Below, in pieces: positions 982 to 64,000 of a stretch of DNA of 64,000 bases. Under the pieces are notes generated by a model that saw only the letters and a list, made by a program, of their open reading frames with translations, had not been told where the DNA came from and searched no databases. How positions within the stretch are numbered: the first letter of the stretch is position 1; each line of letters starts with the position of its first letter. The stretch comes from a virus: positions 79,948-143,947 of the IMG/VR virus record IMGVR_UViG_3300037089_000505, one strand, 5' to 3'. A program made the position numbers and the translations under genes.

Positions 982-1698
982 GAGTTCAGAAGAGTGGAAA
1001 AAATTTGGCTTTGAGCCGACTGTTACTGGTTGGACGGATAGTCCTGAAGGGGCAATGCGATCTGATCCTAATGGAAAGTGGTTTCCAATTCACGTCCTTC
1101 AGGATTTTGCCGCCGCTGAATCTGATAGAGACGATATGGAAAAAATGTTATACTTACTAGTCAAGAGTCTTGAATCATGGTGGAGGCTTCCAAACGATAT
1201 GAGAAAGCTTGCCGACATAGAGCCTTTAATAATAACGGCATTGGATATAAAAGATGAGATGGATAAAAACTCTGTTTAGTTCAGTTGATGGTTCCTTAGC
1301 TAAAAAGCCAGAAGTAAAGATTGATCCTTCAAAGATTAAACTTTCTTCTACTGGCCAACTACGGTTTCCGTCATTGTCTGAACAGCTTAAAAAAGAAATA
1401 GAAAAGCTATCTGACAAGGATAAGAAATTATTCATTGATGTTGCCATACCAATTATAGCCAAACTCAGACGATTTAGCTACGAGAAAGCCTGTGTAGAAA
1501 CAGTCTGGGGTGAAAGCCTCTGGTTCAGTTTACATTTTGTTCCCGACATTACTGTTCATTTGCAAGTATACGTAAGGCCGCCTAAAAAAGTTTTGCGAAC
1601 TTTCTTTACTTTTTGGAAAGGCAAAATCATGTGGACAAATGGTTATGGTAAGATTGATGACTGTTTGGCCGATATTCAAGCGAACTTAAAGGAATAAA

Positions 1699-2067
1699 AT
1701 GCTCCACGTAAAAACAGCTCTCAAAGAAAGCTCCATCCACGGCCTTGGATTGTTTGCGGCCGAGCCAATAAAGAAAGACACTTTAATATGGGAATTCAAT
1801 CCGTTGTTTGATAAAAGGATATATAACGGAATCCTAAACATGTTGCCCGCAGTGACTCAAGAATTTATCAAGCTATATGGTTTTTTGGATCTAGGTGGAT
1901 ATTGGATTTTATGTAGCGACAATGCTCGCTATATGAATCACTCAAATAATCCTACATGCGAAGATCGAAATCAAAAAGACTATGCCGCAAAAGATATTGA
2001 GATAGGCGAAGAGCTCACTTGCAACTATTACGTTTTTGATCGTTCGGTGAGTCATAGAAAAATATAA
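1699..2067 (+). CDS. SET domain protein
   Basis: SSIHGLGLFAAEPI, RYMNHSNNP and AKDIEIGEELTCNY SET motifs. Confidence 0.9.
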   Translation: MLHVKTALKESSIHGLGLFAAEPIKKDTLIWEFNPLFDKRIYNGILNMLPAVTQEFIKLYGFLDLGGYWILCSDNARYMNHSNNPTCEDRNQKDYAAKDIEIGEELTCNYYVFDRSVSHRKI

Positions 2068-19060: not shown

Positions 19061-19910
19061 CTCGAAGAGATATGATGTCCAAACTGACAACGGCAATTTC
19101 TTCGCGAATAATATCCTCGTCCACAACTCTCTCATCAAGGTTTGGTACCATAACTTCTGGCACGTCTCTTCCAACGGTATGATCGACGCTGGGTCTTGCG
19201 ATCTCTCTCTTCCGTTCGGAAGCTACAAGACGCTCGGCGATCTTTTCAGCCAGGCCTTTTTCTTCAAACACAAGAAGAGCTTGAATGATCTCAACAAGAA
19301 CTACACCTATATGTTCGAGCTCATCAGCCCCTACAATCGGGTAGTCATTCCTTACACCGAGATTGACATTTACCATATCGGCACCAGGGAAACGAAGACT
19401 GGAATAGAGCTTATCATTGATATCGGAATTCAGAGACCGAAAGAATTCAATCTTCATACTCTGGATGATGTAATCGCCGCGGCAAAAGTCCTCCCCTTCA
19501 ATGATGAAGGCTACGTGGTGGTTGACGGAAAATGGAATAGAGCGAAGATCAAGTCGCCAGCTTATGTCGCCGTCCATCATCTCAGGGGCGAAGGCAATCT
19601 TTCCTACAAGCGAGTCCTGGTCTTGATCATGTCCAATGAACATACTGAGTTTCTGAACTACTTCCCTGAGTATGTTGAAGTATTCGGTCAGGTAGAAAAG
19701 AAGTATAAAGACTACGTCGAGAAACTCCTTCAGTCTGCAACTGACGCAATTCAGTATAAGAGCTTGCCTCGAAAAGAATATGCCATGTGGGCAACCAAAC
19801 AGGTTGAGCCGGCCTTTCTTTTCCAACTCCTTGATGGAAGGATCAAGACGGCTGAGGAATACTTGGAACAGGTCGGGCCCGAAAAGGTTGCCAAGAAGTT
19901 GGGATACTAA
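19017..19910 (+). CDS. split-intein C-fragment (37 aa, 19017-19127) fused to RNA ligase C-extein (260 aa)
   Basis: basic MKSIKIKSIKK, YDVQT.NGNFFANNILVHN|S; then TYMFELISPYNRVVIPY, EGYVVVD and KIKSPAY ligase motifs. Confidence 0.9.
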   Translation: MKSIKIKSIKKITNNSKRYDVQTDNGNFFANNILVHNSLIKVWYHNFWHVSSNGMIDAGSCDLSLPFGSYKTLGDLFSQAFFFKHKKSLNDLNKNYTYMFELISPYNRVVIPYTEIDIYHIGTRETKTGIELIIDIGIQRPKEFNLHTLDDVIAAAKVLPFNDEGYVVVDGKWNRAKIKSPAYVAVHHLRGEGNLSYKRVLVLIMSNEHTEFLNYFPEYVEVFGQVEKKYKDYVEKLLQSATDAIQYKSLPRKEYAMWATKQVEPAFLFQLLDGRIKTAEEYLEQVGPEKVAKKLGY

Positions 19911-20159
19911 TGCTGAGCAAATTTCATACATTCATCTTGAAGCACTTTTTTAAAATATTAGTGCTGATGATGTCTATCTTTGGTATTGCAATTGGTCTTG
20001 GGTTGAACTACTTTTTCGGCCTCTCGCTTTTCGTATGTATTTGTTCAGGTGTAGTTCTCGGACCACACTTGACTTTCGTGATTTTATTTGCTATCTTTCT
20101 TTTGCCATATACTCAGGGTAAACTTAAACCTAACGCATAATTGAAGGAGAGGTAAACAA

Positions 20160-40490: not shown

Positions 40491-40529
40491 TTTCGATCAC
40501 AAGATAAATTACCAATGAAAGGCATAGAT

Positions 40530-40589
40530 ATGTATATGAATCAGTCGCTCGCAACATTCCAACAGACCCAAACTACAGATACTGTTTGA
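40530..40589 (+). CDS. leader peptide 1 MYMNQSLATFQQTQTTDTV (alternative in-frame start 40515)
   Basis: GAAAGG 7 nt upstream; Thr/Gln/Asp-rich; directly followed by antiterminator/terminator. Confidence 0.75.
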   Translation: MYMNQSLATFQQTQTTDTV

Positions 40590-40640
40590 ACTTTTGCGGG
40601 GAGTGCGTAATACAGACTTCCCAAAGTGGAAGTCTTTTTT
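40590..40640 (+). promoter_or_regulatory. attenuator 1: alternative antiterminator and intrinsic terminator
   Basis: terminator AGACTTCC-CAAAGT-GGAAGTCT-T5 (40614-40640); competing ACTTT..GGGGAGT (40590-40604) pairs with ACTTCCC-AAAGT (40616-40627). Confidence 0.75.
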
Positions 40641-41001: not shown

Positions 41002-41610
41002 ATGAGAAAATTATTTCTTGTTTTGTTTTTATTCGTAGCTGCTCTTTCATTTGCTAATAAGAGCTGGTATGTAGATCAGAATGGAACTGGCATAGGAAAC
41101 TGTGGACCGGCAACGGTAGCTATGATGATTTCTTATACAGAACACGTTCGCATTCCAGTACAAGTAATTCGGGAAGAGATAGGATATACAAGAGATGATG
41201 GCAGTACAGATCTTGAAGAGTTATCAGGTGTTCTTGAGCGTCATAAAATTCGTTATTCTAAAACAGAAATAAAGACGAAGGTTGATTTGGATGAGCTTTT
41301 GGAAACTCATCACATAGTTTTAGTTGACGTAGATATGAGCTATATCCCTAATAAGAGCAACTATGATAAAGGTCACTACTTGATTCTGTCTAGCTATAGT
41401 GAAGGGACTTATGAGGCTCAAGATCCTCTTAATGGATCTGATGTTCATTACAACGCTGATGCAATATGGTCAGCTATGAAAACGAGAGAAGTACTTGTAA
41501 CTGGTAATGGAAGACTGCCACTAGTAGGTTTTGGATTTATTACCCAAATACTATTAGTCATCGACATTAGTGCTATCGTAGTTCCGAAGAAAATTATTTT
41601 GCCGTGTTAG
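41002..41610 (+). CDS. secreted C39-like cysteine peptidase
   Basis: signal peptide; Q....NCGPATVAM, GHYLIL and QDP. Confidence 0.75.
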   Translation: MRKLFLVLFLFVAALSFANKSWYVDQNGTGIGNCGPATVAMMISYTEHVRIPVQVIREEIGYTRDDGSTDLEELSGVLERHKIRYSKTEIKTKVDLDELLETHHIVLVDVDMSYIPNKSNYDKGHYLILSSYSEGTYEAQDPLNGSDVHYNADAIWSAMKTREVLVTGNGRLPLVGFGFITQILLVIDISAIVVPKKIILPC

Positions 41611-41702
41611 CTCAGTTGGTAGCAGCGTTTCCTTGGAGAATGCTTTTTTAAGAGAGCACTGTCCTAAGGAAAAGGTCCCCAGTTCAATTCTGGGACACGG
41701 CT
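41601..41702 (+). tRNA. tRNA, probably Thr(GGT), with a 28-nt insert in the anticodon loop
   Basis: GCCGTGT/ACACGGC-T acceptor like the other Thr tRNAs; TTTCC/GGAAA stem encloses 35 nt instead of 7. Confidence 0.75.
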
Positions 41703-41893
41703 CTCGTCTCGACACATAGACGCATGGGTAAAACTCGAGTCAAGACCCAAGTATTCTAAAGTCTAATAGAGCAGCTTTCTAGAAAGCTATCGAGTACTTA
41801 ATTAGACATTAGCTGAACGATATCGCATTGCGATAGTAGGCGAAGTATTCAATGGCAAAGCGGTAAAGGTGCGACAGCCGGGAGAGACCGGCT
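41703..41893 (+). ncRNA. candidate structured non-coding RNA
   Basis: successive stems CGTCT/AGACG, TGGGT/ACCCA, GTCTAAT/ATTAGAC, TATCGC/GCGATA and AGCCGG/CCGGCT. Confidence 0.5.
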
Positions 41894-48783: not shown

Positions 48784-50544
48784 ATGACTCTACAAGAAGC
48801 AGAAAGATTTGTCGGCAAAGAAGTCAACTATATGAATTTGACTGGCGTCTTACAAAGAGTAAGCGAATTAAATAACACCCAGATGATTCTTGGTTATACT
48901 GATAATGGCATTGTAATCAACATAGTTCTTTATAGGTGCAAAGATGAAAAGGGTGATTGGGTAGACATCGAACAACTACCAAAGGAAGCATAATGGACTT
49001 TAATAAATTTCCCGTAAGCAAAGAACCATTTACGAAAACATTTACTGATGAGCAAAAAATAGATTGGCCAGAAAATTTGAGTGCTCGATTAAAGAGTTGG
49101 ATGATTCTTCTTATGCAGTCAAAAGCTGATGAACTAGGCATCACTGAAGATAATTTAGACTTCATGTATATGTTTAAGCTCGAAGATAATTACGGCGTCA
49201 TTGCACGTTGGAGAAAGACACCAGACAGACCAATTACAGTCAAGATGCCATTTGATTTGATCAAGACGGCTTATAGTTGGAAATTGACAATAGAAGAATA
49301 TTTTTCGCCAGTCTAATAACTCTATTCACTACCATGTTTTCCGCCGCCGAATATAATGTCTATTAATTTAAGCTTAGCGTAGCGTGGAATTTTGCTTGAG
49401 GAATTTATAAATTTTACAGCAGGGTTGTTGCCAAGGCTATCTACGTCGTGCCCGCCGCCACTAAAACCACCATCTGCATAATAAGCAACAAAATAATAGC
49501 CAAAGTCTTTTGTATCTATACCATAGCCCGGACTTTGGATGCCATTATCGGTTTGCCATCCATAAATAAAGAGTCTCATTTTAATTATCTTTGCATATAT
49601 AATCCTGTTATGACTCCTATTGAAAATGAAGTTTATGTAATAGATGTGTTGAAAGCAGCTAAACTATTGGGGAAAGAAGGAACGCCTAAAGTGGCTCAAC
49701 TATTTTTCCTCTACAAAGATTTTAAAGATGGCGATTTCGTTTTCAAGGAGAAAGAGGCAGATAAAAAGATATATGAAGTTAGAGTAACACCTGATCAACT
49801 TCAAAAACTCATTAAACTTAAAGCAATATCCAAAGCAGAAAAAGGACCAGATAGAACGAAAACACTTCTATCACTAATGTAACAAAGAAAAGGAGAAAGA
49901 CAATGATAACGATTCCAGAATTGATCAAGAAAGACAGAGAGGTTAAGAGGACCCCAATCGGCAAGATCGCAATCCGCGATTTGGTTGGTAACAAGAAAAG
50001 GGTTTTCGGTGGTGGCAAAATTACAATCGAGTCACTAATTCGCAAAGAAGGCCGTGAGCCAGGCGGTGAACCATACGGTTATAAGATCTAGCCTGATGGT
50101 AATTGTGGTCGCTTCTCTCAAGATAACTAAGAAGCGACCACAATAGAGAGGACACTAATGACACAGGATATGTATAATTTACTTAAGCAGATAGACGAAG
50201 AGACCAAGCCCACTGGCAAAAAGAAATTGAACGAGGCTAAAGGCGGCGATCCTAGAAAAATAGCAAAGAAGATTTTTATAGAATTAATGGATCCCGATAT
50301 TGTCGAGGGCGGAATGGAAAACATGGAAGACAATCTAGACGATGTGATGGTTGGAAGCGATCCAAATAGTCCAGAAAGCTCAGCGCTTCGAAAAGAAGTT
50401 AAGAAAGCCATAATGGACTATATTAAACAGACCAAAGCTTTTATAAAAACTTTGAAATAATTTCTAACTTATCCGCATAAGTAATAAGATAAAACAAACA
50501 CAAGTTTCGAAGTAGAGTTATACTTCAAACTGAAGAAGGAGCAA

Positions 50545-50622
50545 ATGACAAAACTTTCTTGGCCGATCAGACACCCCATATACCCAGTAGCAGCCTTTAA
50601 TTATGAAGGAGAAGGTGTGTAG
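50545..50622 (+). CDS. leader peptide 2 MTKLSWPIRHPIYPVAAFNYEGEGV
   Basis: SD AAGGAG at 50536-50541; promoter TTCGAA-N7-TATACT at 50506-50524; stop codon is part of the antiterminator. Confidence 0.8.
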   Translation: MTKLSWPIRHPIYPVAAFNYEGEGV

Positions 50623-50689
50623 CAGGCGCGGCTGACTTTGTCACTTGGAAAGCCCCCTGCTAGGTTCAAACCTGGTAGAGGGCTTTTTT
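50620..50689 (+). promoter_or_regulatory. attenuator 2: alternative antiterminator and intrinsic terminator
   Basis: terminator AAGCCC-C-CTGCTAGG-TTCAAA-CCTGGTAG-A-GGGCTT-T4; competing TAGCAGG..GGCT (50620-50633) pairs with AGCC-C-CCTGCTA (50651-50662). Confidence 0.8.
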
Positions 50690-50893
50690 ATTGCCCGGAA
50701 ATCGGGGAGAAGTTAAGGCCTGGTCAATCAATGAGAATGACCTGAGAGCCGCTTTATTGACAAACAGTGAACTTAGGCCAGAGGCACGGTAAAACGGAGT
50801 CGTTACCTAATTCACTCATATCGTATTCCTAAAGGGAATACGGCTAGACAATTAGTAATTAATCAGGGGCTCAGTGCACTAGACTGGGTCCCT
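50690..50893 (+). ncRNA. candidate structured non-coding RNA
   Basis: stems CCCG/CGGG, GTCAAT/ATTGAC, GTGAA..TTAGG/CCTAA.TTCAC, CGTATTCC/GGAATACG and GGGGCTCAGT/ACTGGGTCCC. Confidence 0.5.
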
Positions 50894-50899
50894 TCTATT

Positions 50900-50971
50900 C
50901 AGGGTGTGGCCTAGTGGTAAGGCGCGACGTTCGGGACGTCGACATCGGTGGTCCGAATCCACTCACCCTGA
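50900..50971 (+). tRNA. tRNA-Pro(CGG)
   Basis: CAGGGTG/CACCCTG; CGACG-TT CGG GA-CGTCG; T-loop TCCGAAT. Confidence 0.9.
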
Positions 50972-50975
50972 CTTT

Positions 50976-51050
50976 CGGGATGTAGACCAGTTGGTAGGTC
51001 GCCTGCGTTGGAAGCAGGACGTCGCGGCGGTCCGAATCCGCCCATCCCGA
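50976..51050 (+). tRNA. tRNA-Pro(TGG), atypical loop (G32, A37)
   Basis: CGGGATG/CATCCCG; CCTGC-GT TGG AA-GCAGG; T-loop TCCGAAT. Confidence 0.8.
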
Positions 51051-51104
51051 AATCGAGACTCAAGCTTTCGACTCGAACCCGCAAGATAATTTTAGGAGTC
51101 GAAA

Positions 51105-51482
51105 ATGAGTCAAACAAAAGATAAGCATCACGAATATATGGTTGAACGTCTCAAAGATGTCGAAGCTCGTAATAGAAGAAATAAGATACATAATGAAAGA
51201 AGACGCGAATTAAAACAATGGTTTTTTGATTATAAGAGTAAACTGAAATGTATCAAGTGTGGCGAAAATCCACATCCTGTTGCTATGGATTTTCATCATC
51301 CAAATCGCGATAATGAAAAAGGAATTTACAAACTGAAAATTCGCTCAGATAGAACAGAACTTCTAAAAGAGCTTAGTAAATGTATCCCAGTCTGCGCCAA
51401 TTGTCATAGAATAATACATTGGGAAGACAAAACACTAGGTAGAAGTCGTAAGAACTTAATGGTCCCATCGAATATCAGCTAG
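51105..51482 (+). CDS. HNH endonuclease in the tRNA cluster
   Basis: CIKCGE...DFHH...KC.PVCANCHRIIH. Confidence 0.85.
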   Translation: MSQTKDKHHEYMVERLKDVEARNRRNKIHNERRRELKQWFFDYKSKLKCIKCGENPHPVAMDFHHPNRDNEKGIYKLKIRSDRTELLKELSKCIPVCANCHRIIHWEDKTLGRSRKNLMVPSNIS

Positions 51483-57415: not shown

Positions 57416-57541
57416 GGGAGTGTAGCTTAGAGTGCATAGTAAGGGCGCTACAGCATTGATCACACTACTGTAGAAGAGCTACTATGACGGCAGAGCGGTC
57501 TCTAACCGGGGCGAACGCTGGTTCGAATCCAGCCACTTCCG
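57416..57541 (+). ncRNA. tRNA-like RNA with a 56-nt D-loop insert and a non-canonical anticodon arm
   Basis: GGGAGTG/CACTTCC-G acceptor (G3.U70); GCTGG-TTCGAAT-CCAGC; GCTT/GAGC D-stem; insert stems CATAGTA/TACTATG and CTACAG/CTGTAG. Confidence 0.7.
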
Positions 57542-57638
57542 CGATCTTAACAGGAGGTAGAGTAATGCCACCGCCTAGTTGAAATTTTTATTGTTATGTG
57601 AACTAATTATGATTTAAGCCGAAATGATAGTAGGTGAG

Positions 57639-57678
57639 ACCTTGTCCCATACCTTTTTATGGGACAAGGTTTTATTTT
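57639..57678 (+). terminator. hairpin, probable terminator
   Basis: ACCTTGTCCCATA/TATGGGACAAGGT followed by a U-rich tract. Confidence 0.65.
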
Positions 57679-57832
57679 CAGGAGAACAAAATGCTTATTG
57701 GGGCTTGTAATTGCGAATCTTGTAATGCTTATTATGAGATGCAAAAAAGACTATATGAGAATGAAAAGAAAAATGAAGCCATAAGGCTTTCTCTTCAAAA
57801 AAAGAAAAAACTTTCAGCTCGGAAAAAGAAAC

Positions 57833-62800: not shown

Positions 62801-63361
62801 ATGATTTGCGAAAATTGCAGCAAAGATTTCTCTGAAGATTGGCGAATAGGTAAAAAGAGAGGACTATTACGGTTCTGCTCTTCACGATGTGCAAAGCGTC
62901 GAAAACAAACTGATGCGATTAGAGAGGCAAAAAGTAAAGCTAGCAAAGCTGCTTGGAAAAGAGGTGTCTATAAAAATCAATACAATCACACTTTTTCAAA
63001 AGCAGACAGAAAAAAGGGCATTGATACTTGTATAGAAAAAGCTAAAACAAGAAACGCAGAACTATTAGCCACTCATCAATATGAAAAAATGAGCAATGAG
63101 GTTAGAAGACGATTTATCCTCGACGAAGTTAATCATGCCTGTGAGTCATGTCATAATTCAGAGTGGCTTGGAAAACCAATATGGTTAGAAATACATCACA
63201 AGGATGATGATAATACGAACAATAAACGCGACAATCTTTTAGTTCTTTGTCCAAATTGTCATTCAGCAATAGATGAGAAATATAGGTTTAGAGGGCGAAG
63301 TAGAAAAAAGACCGAAAGTAGCTCAGTTTGGCTTAGAGCATCTGCCTTATCGGAAGCATAG
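62801..63361 (+). CDS. HNH homing endonuclease
   Basis: FCS..C, CESC...W...I.LEIHHKD....NN..DNL..LCPNCHS; 3' end runs into tRNA-Ile. Confidence 0.88.
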   Translation: MICENCSKDFSEDWRIGKKRGLLRFCSSRCAKRRKQTDAIREAKSKASKAAWKRGVYKNQYNHTFSKADRKKGIDTCIEKAKTRNAELLATHQYEKMSNEVRRRFILDEVNHACESCHNSEWLGKPIWLEIHHKDDDNTNNKRDNLLVLCPNCHSAIDEKYRFRGRSRKKTESSSVWLRASALSEA

Positions 63362-63414
63362 GTTGAGTGCTTCAGATAAGCAGGGGGTCGGTGGTTCAAA
63401 TCCACCCTTTCGGA
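63312..63414 (+). tRNA. tRNA-Ile (TAT or GAT) with a 27-nt insert in the anticodon loop
   Basis: CCGAAAG/CTTTCGG-A; TCTGC/GCAGG encloses 34 nt: CT TAT...GAT AA. Confidence 0.78.
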
Positions 63415-63626: not shown

Positions 63627-64000
63627 ATGAACGAATTTACTAACGGATTCATTGGTCTATTTGGCCAACTTAAGAAGGACCTCATAACTGAGGCTTTTTC
63701 AAACTTTGAATATGCTCTTCCCGACGACCCTGAAAAAATGCTGTATGACTTCTATTTTCTTACATGGGCCGGCAGTTTAGAAACATCCGATATTAAATTC
63801 AACTACGCCATAAAAGATGCCAAAGACACTATAGTAGAGTCGCTAACTAAGCACATGTTGGCAGCCGTCAAGTTTTCAATGCTTGCTGAAGTTCTCGTTT
63901 ATATGAGTATAGACGTTAAACTCTCATCTGATGCAAAGGCCTTCTTTCAACTTTGGAATGAGAATTGTAGAAAAAATAAAGTTCAGAAAGATGAATCGCC
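63627..64000 (+). CDS. hypothetical protein, runs off the window end
   Basis: AAGATAA-N4-ATG; frame MNEFTNGFIGLFGQLKKDLITEAF... appears open to the end. Confidence 0.6.
   Translation, partial: MNEFTNGFIGLFGQLKKDLITEAFSNFEYALPDDPEKMLYDFYFLTWAGSLETSDIKFNYAIKDAKDTIVESLTKHMLAAVKFSMLAEVLVYMSIDVKLSSDAKAFFQLWNENCRKNKVQKDES

Follow-up and report, generated by a model that had tools for sequence, protein, structure and literature searches.

Introduction

Control of gene expression by a translated leader is well described for the amino-acid operons (ilvL, thrL, hisL, trpL, leuL and pheL). In these leaders a short translated peptide frame is followed by an intrinsic terminator and a competing antiterminator, the codons correspond to the amino acids supplied by the operon, and the position of the ribosome selects the fold. 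The leaders ilvL (of ilvGMEDA) and thrL sense two or three amino acids. The related pheM leader attenuates pheST, an aminoacyl-transfer RNA (tRNA) synthetase operon, according to the level of charged tRNA. T-box elements need no ribosome and contact the tRNA themselves, by means of a specifier codon and a UGGN bulge. The reason for which phages carry tRNA genes, and the way in which these genes are controlled, form an old open question. Here we describe leader 2, a short open reading frame (ORF) that stands in front of the main tRNA region of a virus, in a stretch of 64,000 nucleotides (nt) corresponding to positions 79,948 to 143,947 of the IMG/VR record IMGVR_UViG_3300037089_000505 (hereafter the window; coordinates given without a label refer to it). 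Based on the sequence analysis presented below, we propose, with a probability of roughly 60%, that the ORF of leader 2 serves as the sensor in a ribosome-mediated transcription attenuator reporting on decoding capacity.

Leader-peptide attenuation as such is known; what sets leader 2 apart is a one-of-each codon catalogue placed ahead of tRNA genes. The layout and the proposed logic are those of the amino-acid operon leaders, but leader 2 precedes phage tRNA genes rather than biosynthetic enzymes, covers 18-19 isoacceptors of 13 amino acids with approximately one codon apiece instead of runs for one to three amino acids, and is without an evident separate region 1. A preliminary description of this DNA had set leader 2 apart from classical single-amino-acid leaders, a contrast that was overstated, as multivalent leaders such as ilvL are known. 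The Rfam operon-leader families (Thr_leader, His_leader, Trp_leader, Leu_leader and others) gave no match at E <= 10 in the region 50400-51100; leader 2 thus appears to work like the amino-acid operon leaders and yet to belong to none of those Rfam families. With pheM it shares the principle of a leader-peptide attenuator over a component of the decoding machinery; pheM is bacterial, senses one amino acid by a run of Phe codons and controls a synthetase, whereas leader 2 is viral and precedes tRNA genes. T-boxes resemble it in sensing tRNA status and in switching between terminator and antiterminator upstream of translation-related genes. Identity with a T-box was rejected, since there was no Rfam T-box match and the UGG of the loop in the window was absent from a related locus (L015, see below). 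A full-text literature search returned no report of leader-peptide attenuation of tRNA genes.

Results

Codon content of leader 2

The virus of the window was also recovered on a 180,159-bp ENA contig, which is 99.3% identical across the 11.2 kb in common and extends beyond the window end. The full known tRNA repertoire and the codon statistics based on it were drawn from 172 kb of sequence; at least 7.4 kb of the 180-kb contig lies outside it. With the full known set of downstream tRNAs, which read 58.5% of the codons used by the phage, all of codons 6-25 of leader 2 were in the set (20/20 against a background of 0.585, P = 2e-5), and, of 259 small ORFs, no other ended in an in-set run of at least 14 codons. 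The codons were also spread across the tRNAs. Codons 6-25 called on 18 of the 23 sense anticodons, and on 19 in two related loci, L015 and L017, owing to GAG at codon 23. Random in-set codons reached 12.4 +/- 1.5 distinct anticodons (P = 2e-4 for 18), and 19 was obtained in 0 of 200,000 draws. The value of 19 is the maximum that the peptide permits (P = 0.004 given the peptide). The three Pro codons corresponded to three tRNA-Pro species, and the Ile, Val, Ala and Gly codon pairs each to two different isoacceptors. When all six frames of the 172 kb were scanned with lengths of 15-25 codons, leader 2 was the unique maximum (approximately 344,000 twenty-codon segments), the best twenty-codon segment elsewhere reaching 16 distinct anticodons. 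As only translation connects codons with anticodons, this frame-specific signal indicates that the frame is probably read. Codons 2-5 (Thr, Lys, Leu and Ser) had no downstream tRNA in the sequence covered.

The idea that leader 2 lists the tRNAs encoded behind it came from the window alone, where 16 of codons 7-25 had been assigned to nine amino acids with downstream tRNAs. The enrichment was confirmed, but the numbers were not: the window tRNAs after leader 2 cover eight specificities (Pro, Tyr, Phe, His, Asn, Gly, Ile and Val; ARAGORN and Rfam), neither program found a tRNA-Glu in the window, and the count is for this reason 14/19 by amino acid. Exact codon-anticodon pairing, also claimed, was found for 10/19 codons in the window; the proposed pair GAA/TTC lacks its tRNA there, tRNA-Glu(TTC) being encoded on the 180-kb contig. 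The match still exceeded that of random codon draws, with a nominal P = 0.003, or 0.008 after correction for the chosen suffix, and with P = 0.05 for the whole peptide. A leader specific for Pro, or for Pro, Glu, Tyr and Phe, was unsupported (hand tally against background frequencies, P of approximately 0.08 each).

Terminator and antiterminator

The short ORF, with its ribosome-binding site, lies in a 5' leader, and an intrinsic terminator stands between it and the tRNA genes to which its codons are cognate. An alternative helix, mutually exclusive with the terminator, was predicted between the stop codon and the 5' arm of the terminator (50620-50633/50651-50662). In agreement with the preliminary description, which had placed the TAG stop within the antiterminator strand, this helix starts at the U of the stop codon, and the same holds for both sequence variants of the element. 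Judging from known footprints, a ribosome at the stop codon would mask this strand. When folded from the stop codon as far as the terminator loop, the nascent RNA was predicted to form the antiterminator helix, with a free energy of -17.9 kcal/mol; the pairing of the window sequence to the terminator 5' arm was better than that of shuffled sequences (P = 0.012). The ORF also contains GTAGCAGCC (50584-50594), repeated as GTAGCAGGC at the stop codon (50618-50628), which offers a second possible partner for the terminator arm. At 50604-50622, a second ribosome-binding site, GAAGGAG, is followed after 5 nt by GTG TAG, a possible start-stop element at the antiterminator.

The block conserved between relatives begins with the motif AAGATAA, which occurs 63 times on the plus strand and 20 times on the minus strand of the 144-kb contig that holds the window (e.g., at 50486, 51083, 40501 and 58435). 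Many copies precede an ATG by exactly 4 nt, or by 10-30 nt with an intervening ribosome-binding site, and the motif is probably a phage-specific promoter or start signal. Neither AAGATAA nor a sigma-70-like site was found between 50690 and 50900. Expression of the tRNA-Pro genes should rely on read-through, because no promoter-like signal separates them from the terminator. The candidate features are listed in Table 1.

Table 1. Coordinates of the leader 2 and leader 1 features in the window
Feature	Position	Strand	Remarks
AAGATAA motif	50486..50492	+	likely phage promoter/start signal; conserved block begins here
5' hairpin of leader transcript	50503..50531	+	single-sequence and consensus folds; invariant in four lineages
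Shine-Dalgarno AAGGAG	50536..50541	+	read from sequence; 3 nt ahead of ATG
Leader 2 ORF, 25 codons and TAG stop (50620-50622)	50545..50622	+	ATG at 50545
Codon catalogue, codons 6-25	50560..50619	+	all read by downstream-encoded tRNAs; 18 distinct anticodons
Antiterminator 5' strand, from U of TAG stop	50620..50633	+	predicted to pair with 50651-50662
Intrinsic terminator, hairpin 50648-50687 and U tract to 50689	50648..50689	+	-25.4 kcal/mol
Conserved structured RNA between terminator and first tRNA	50716..50893	+	five hairpins
tRNA-Pro(CGG) and tRNA-Pro(TGG), first genes past attenuator	50900..51051	+	ARAGORN and Rfam
Leader 1 unit: 24-codon ORF (40515-40589), antiterminator, terminator	40515..40640	+	precedes Thr/Asp/Gln tRNAs

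Conservation between lineages

A 100-aa protein encoded upstream of leader 2 led to four relatives, in which its identity to the window protein was 90% (L015), 53% (L017 and L018) and 49% (L019). The comparisons below were made between four lineages, namely the window, L015, L017/L018 and L019. The 137 nt from the motif to the stop codon, comprising the 5' untranslated region (UTR) and the ORF, were 97-100% identical in the four lineages. L019 carries an extra gene upstream, and its similarity to the window starts exactly at the AAGATAA motif (50486). Within the ORF, 76-78 of the 78 nt were identical, and changes were confined to codon 23 (GAA to GAG) and codon 7 (CCG to CTG). The identity of the tRNA-Pro(CGG) gene was 43-90%; the contrast with the 97-100% identical ORF is expected if each codon was chosen for an isoacceptor. 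Depending on the lineage, one of two very different tRNA-Pro(CGG) genes, with 43-50% identity to each other, is found at this place within a block that is otherwise 82-96% identical (window 50900-50972 versus L015 and L019).

The segment between the stop codon and the terminator was more variable (46-96% identity among the lineages), and both pairings were kept. In L015, the relative with the greatest divergence here, this segment is 52% identical to that of the window and its letters differ after UAGC; its predicted antiterminator comprises 10 bp starting at UAG (-22.6 kcal/mol, shuffle P = 0.004) and is accompanied by a perfect terminator. The terminator stem was retained through compensatory changes in L015 and L019. 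For the first antiterminator helix, 27/28 cells were paired across the four lineages, with one compensatory pair and two one-sided changes, a count of low power given four sequences. Production of a longer protein by read-through of the TAG was discarded, as the extended frames of the window and L015 are unlike each other and end at different positions. Leader 2 was likewise rejected as a repeat or mobile element, there being no second copy in the 172 kb.

Behind the terminator, the structured RNA of approximately 178 nt was 82-96% identical among the lineages, with compensatory changes at four pairs. A search of 50400-51100 gave no matching Rfam family for either leader 2 or this RNA. It may serve as a processing platform or persist as a stable RNA, as do the small RNAs found in the tRNA region of T4.

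Leader 1, the sister unit

The other tRNA cluster of the window, with Thr, Asp and Gln tRNAs, is preceded by a second unit, leader 1, which has an ORF unrelated to that of leader 2 in an identical layout, again behind an AAGATAA motif. The C-terminal stretch of leader 1 reads TFQQTQTTDTV and is at the genome-wide maximum for Thr, Gln and Asp in 11-residue segments, tied with one place on the minus strand. The L019 version has Phe to Thr and Val to Thr replacements that raise its Thr content, and in L029 the N-terminus is quite different, the open frame still ending in QTTDT and one residue. Because the peptide diverges while the Thr, Gln and Asp codons persist, the variation of leader 1 is best read, from these sequences, as selection on codon content and not on the peptide.

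The tRNA genes downstream of leader 2

All tRNA genes and the tmRNA of the 144-kb contig lie within the window on the plus strand. They do not form the 13-kb tRNA array that had been described; the tRNA genes are scattered among protein genes encoding HNH, endonuclease, methyltransferase, radical-SAM, GNAT and RNA-ligase proteins. Past the window end, the 180-kb contig encodes, in order, tRNAs Met (two), Ala(CGC), Ala(GGC), Trp(CCA), Ile(GAT), Pro(GGG), an amber suppressor (CTA), Gly(GCC), Arg(TCT), Arg(CCT), Glu(CTC), Val(TAC), Glu(TTC), Gly(TCC) and Ala(TGC). The Ala and Arg(TCT) tRNAs that the preliminary description had expected just past the window are therefore present (three Ala genes and Arg(TCT)), but 7-27 kb away, and the Val(TAC) gene to be sought there was found as well. 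A tRNA-Ser(AGA) proposed by the intron mode of ARAGORN 6.8 kb past the window end was not used, being without Rfam backing.

In L015, L017 and L018, tRNA-Pro(TGG) is followed by tRNA-Glu(TTC), and in the window and L019 by an HNH-like gene instead (51105-51482 in the window), which occupies the place of an odd tRNA together with the tRNA-Glu(TTC). The HNH label rests on Cys and His motifs, with no Pfam match; from its sequence, the gene looks like a homing-endonuclease cassette in place of tRNA genes. Several tRNA genes carry insertions: a tRNA-like gene at 57416-57541 holds an insert of approximately 50 nt (Rfam 33.8 bits), a tRNA-Ile(TAT) at 63312-63414 is interrupted by 27 nt after the anticodon, and a Ser(GGA) or Thr(GGT) tRNA at 41601-41703 has a 28-nt insert. 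The amber suppressor (L030 8525-8600) lies approximately 16.2 kb beyond the window end. Despite this suppressor, TAG accounts for 16% of the stop codons of the phage (35/219), that of leader 2 included. Weak matches to YrlA (Y RNA-like), below the family threshold, were seen beside tRNA-Ala genes (L020 18279-18410, 33.8 bits, and 19777-19911, 28.7 bits). At 57566-57680, upstream of the GNAT gene and tRNA-His, a five-codon mini-ORF (Met, three Pro and Ser) with a strong ribosome-binding site is found 55 nt before a hairpin (57638-57671, -21.9 kcal/mol) and a U tract; by its layout, it may be another translation-sensing unit.

Source contig and searches for relatives

The window is the final part of a single 143,947-bp virus contig, which stops at window base 64000. 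Its genes for a tail sheath, for UvsX-like and DnaB-like proteins and for several RNA ligases indicate a large myovirus. The contig represents part of a longer genome: the same phage is found on the 180-kb contig and, according to the index of the collection, on contigs of up to 310 kb, and it may therefore be a jumbo phage. The metagenomes with sequencing runs that contain the locus came from peat, lake, pond and soil, and no RNA sequencing runs were among the runs listed as containing it. No close relative of the 144-kb contig was found in the GenBank phages or IMG/VR, and no relative of leader 2 was found in the GenBank phages by DNA or peptide search. Exact 22-mer scans of IMG/VR and the JGI metagenomes gave no match. 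In IMG/VR, no usable relative was reached from the upstream protein, from the radical-SAM protein or from the tail sheath, and the HNH protein led only to unrelated loci. Matches to the kinase gene at approximately 50% identity were set aside, as their contigs looked bacterial. A 772-nt stretch of the window (1119-1890) is 100% identical to L019 13206-13977, at a different genomic place, which could be explained by a mobile segment or by recent exchange.

Discussion

Starting from the observed parts, their conservation and the codon-anticodon statistics, we infer translation of the ORF, the ribosome footprints, coupling to RNA polymerase and regulated read-through, which would combine as follows. 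The transcript would start just downstream of the AAGATAA motif, and a ribosome would read the 25-codon ORF as the polymerase proceeds. When decoding is fluent, the ribosome would reach the TAG and cover the next 12-15 nt, i.e. the antiterminator 5' strand, so that the terminator forms and transcription stops at 50689. When a listed codon up to approximately codon 21-22 is slow because its tRNA is scarce or cleaved, the ribosome would be held upstream, and the strand at the stop codon would be free to pair with the terminator 5' arm. The polymerase would then transcribe the structured RNA, both tRNA-Pro genes and sequence further downstream. Leader 2 would act as an OR gate over many tRNAs, because almost all tRNA species of the region are represented once among codons 6-25, and would exert negative feedback on the phage tRNA supply.

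Several observations weigh against this attenuator. The ribosome-binding site is separated from the ATG by 3 nt, compared to the usual 5-8 nt after AGGAG in the genes of this phage. A ribosome stalled at approximately codons 23-25 would itself cover the antiterminator, and the last three or so listed codons would therefore be unable to induce read-through. At -25 kcal/mol, the terminator is far stronger than the antiterminator at -18 kcal/mol, and a free toehold is available to it. Further downstream, several AAGATAA motifs and two strong terminators (57638 and 59546) were found; owing to these terminators, direct control would extend over approximately 7 kb, whereas the listed tRNAs lie up to approximately 40 kb away. 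Differences in the proximal tRNA genes are not mirrored in the leader: the window and L019 keep Glu codons although the HNH gene occupies the place of the tRNA-Glu, and L019 turns Pro codon 7 into Leu. The 5' UTR is as invariant as the ORF, for which codon choice cannot account. The covariation count, made on four sequences, is underpowered. Finally, tRNAs for Leu, Lys, Ser or Cys in the at least 7.4 kb beyond the coverage, or further away, would weaken the in-set statistic, and the distinct-anticodon statistic to a lesser degree.

Part of this evidence is also accommodated if the catalogue is translated but uncoupled from termination, for example as a 190-nt terminated mini-mRNA or dual-function small RNA that reports or titrates tRNAs, the alternative pairing tuning its stability or translation. 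We consider such an RNA unlikely, though it survives better than the other alternatives. The equal invariance of 5' UTR and ORF, the strength of the terminator relative to the antiterminator and the reach of the listed tRNAs far past the next terminators would all fit it, as would a ribosome-binding site able to pair with codons 4-6 and the second such site (GAAGGAG, 5 nt, GTG TAG) at the ORF end. It leaves aside that the only promoter seen for the tRNA-Pro genes is the one upstream of the leader, that the antiterminator was rebuilt in L015 with its anchor at the stop codon, and that the other tRNA cluster is preceded by the identical layout of leader 1.

Leader 2 could instead be a conventional small protein gene with a conventional terminator behind it that ends the upstream transcription unit, its match to the tRNAs being a by-product of peptide composition. 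Phage genomes commonly contain small ORFs, three of the four lineages share an identical peptide, and the match with the window tRNAs alone was modest for the whole peptide (P = 0.05). We regard this as improbable, since peptide composition predicts neither a genome-wide six-frame codon maximum that includes synonymous choices maximising distinct isoacceptors, nor a conserved alternative pairing, nor synonymous sites frozen amid drifting neighbouring sequence. Somewhat less probable again is a non-coding structured or small RNA with its own terminator, in which the open frame and the codon match are coincidental. Conservation of the entire 137 nt at the nucleotide level without an informative substitution pattern, the short spacing after the ribosome-binding site and the fact that a 25-codon frame is open by chance approximately 30% of the time are all compatible with such an RNA; rank 1 among approximately 344,000 segments in one specific frame is improbable by chance, no Rfam family matched, and the fold z-score is only -2.7. 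Known arrest peptides (TnaC, SecM) share recurrent motifs rich in Trp and Pro, but an attenuator in which the conserved peptide (with Trp and three Pro, and invariant save for one change) stalls the ribosome on a small molecule or factor independently of tRNA supply is very improbable here, as it explains neither the one-codon-per-isoacceptor pattern with its synonymous choices nor a leader 1 peptide that evolves fast and yet keeps its Thr, Gln and Asp codons.

For an attenuator driven by tRNA supply, the use of single codons has a consequence: they are weak sensors of mild starvation and strong sensors of the near-total loss of one tRNA. Recent work links phage tRNAs to escape from tRNA-cleaving defences (PMC10264068, PMC11555353). 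Sensing by single codons fits phage tRNAs as replacements for host tRNAs cut by defence nucleases. We tentatively suggest, as a possibility to which we give clearly less weight than to the attenuator itself, a viral surveillance and homeostasis circuit against tRNA-targeting immunity, in which one ribosome transit checks approximately 19 isoacceptors and a stall at any codon turns on the replacement tRNAs. The stall could be caused by a host anticodon nuclease that cleaves one tRNA, or by phage-induced loss of host tRNA.

The element is compact (approximately 200 nt) and testable in a reporter, and a codon catalogue next to a terminator would provide a sequence signature for finding such switches in other tRNA-rich viruses. 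If the attenuator is true, it would be a many-input OR sensor made of single codons and would carry leader-peptide attenuation beyond amino-acid supply, to decoding capacity. It would also be the first regulatory logic shown for phage tRNA genes.

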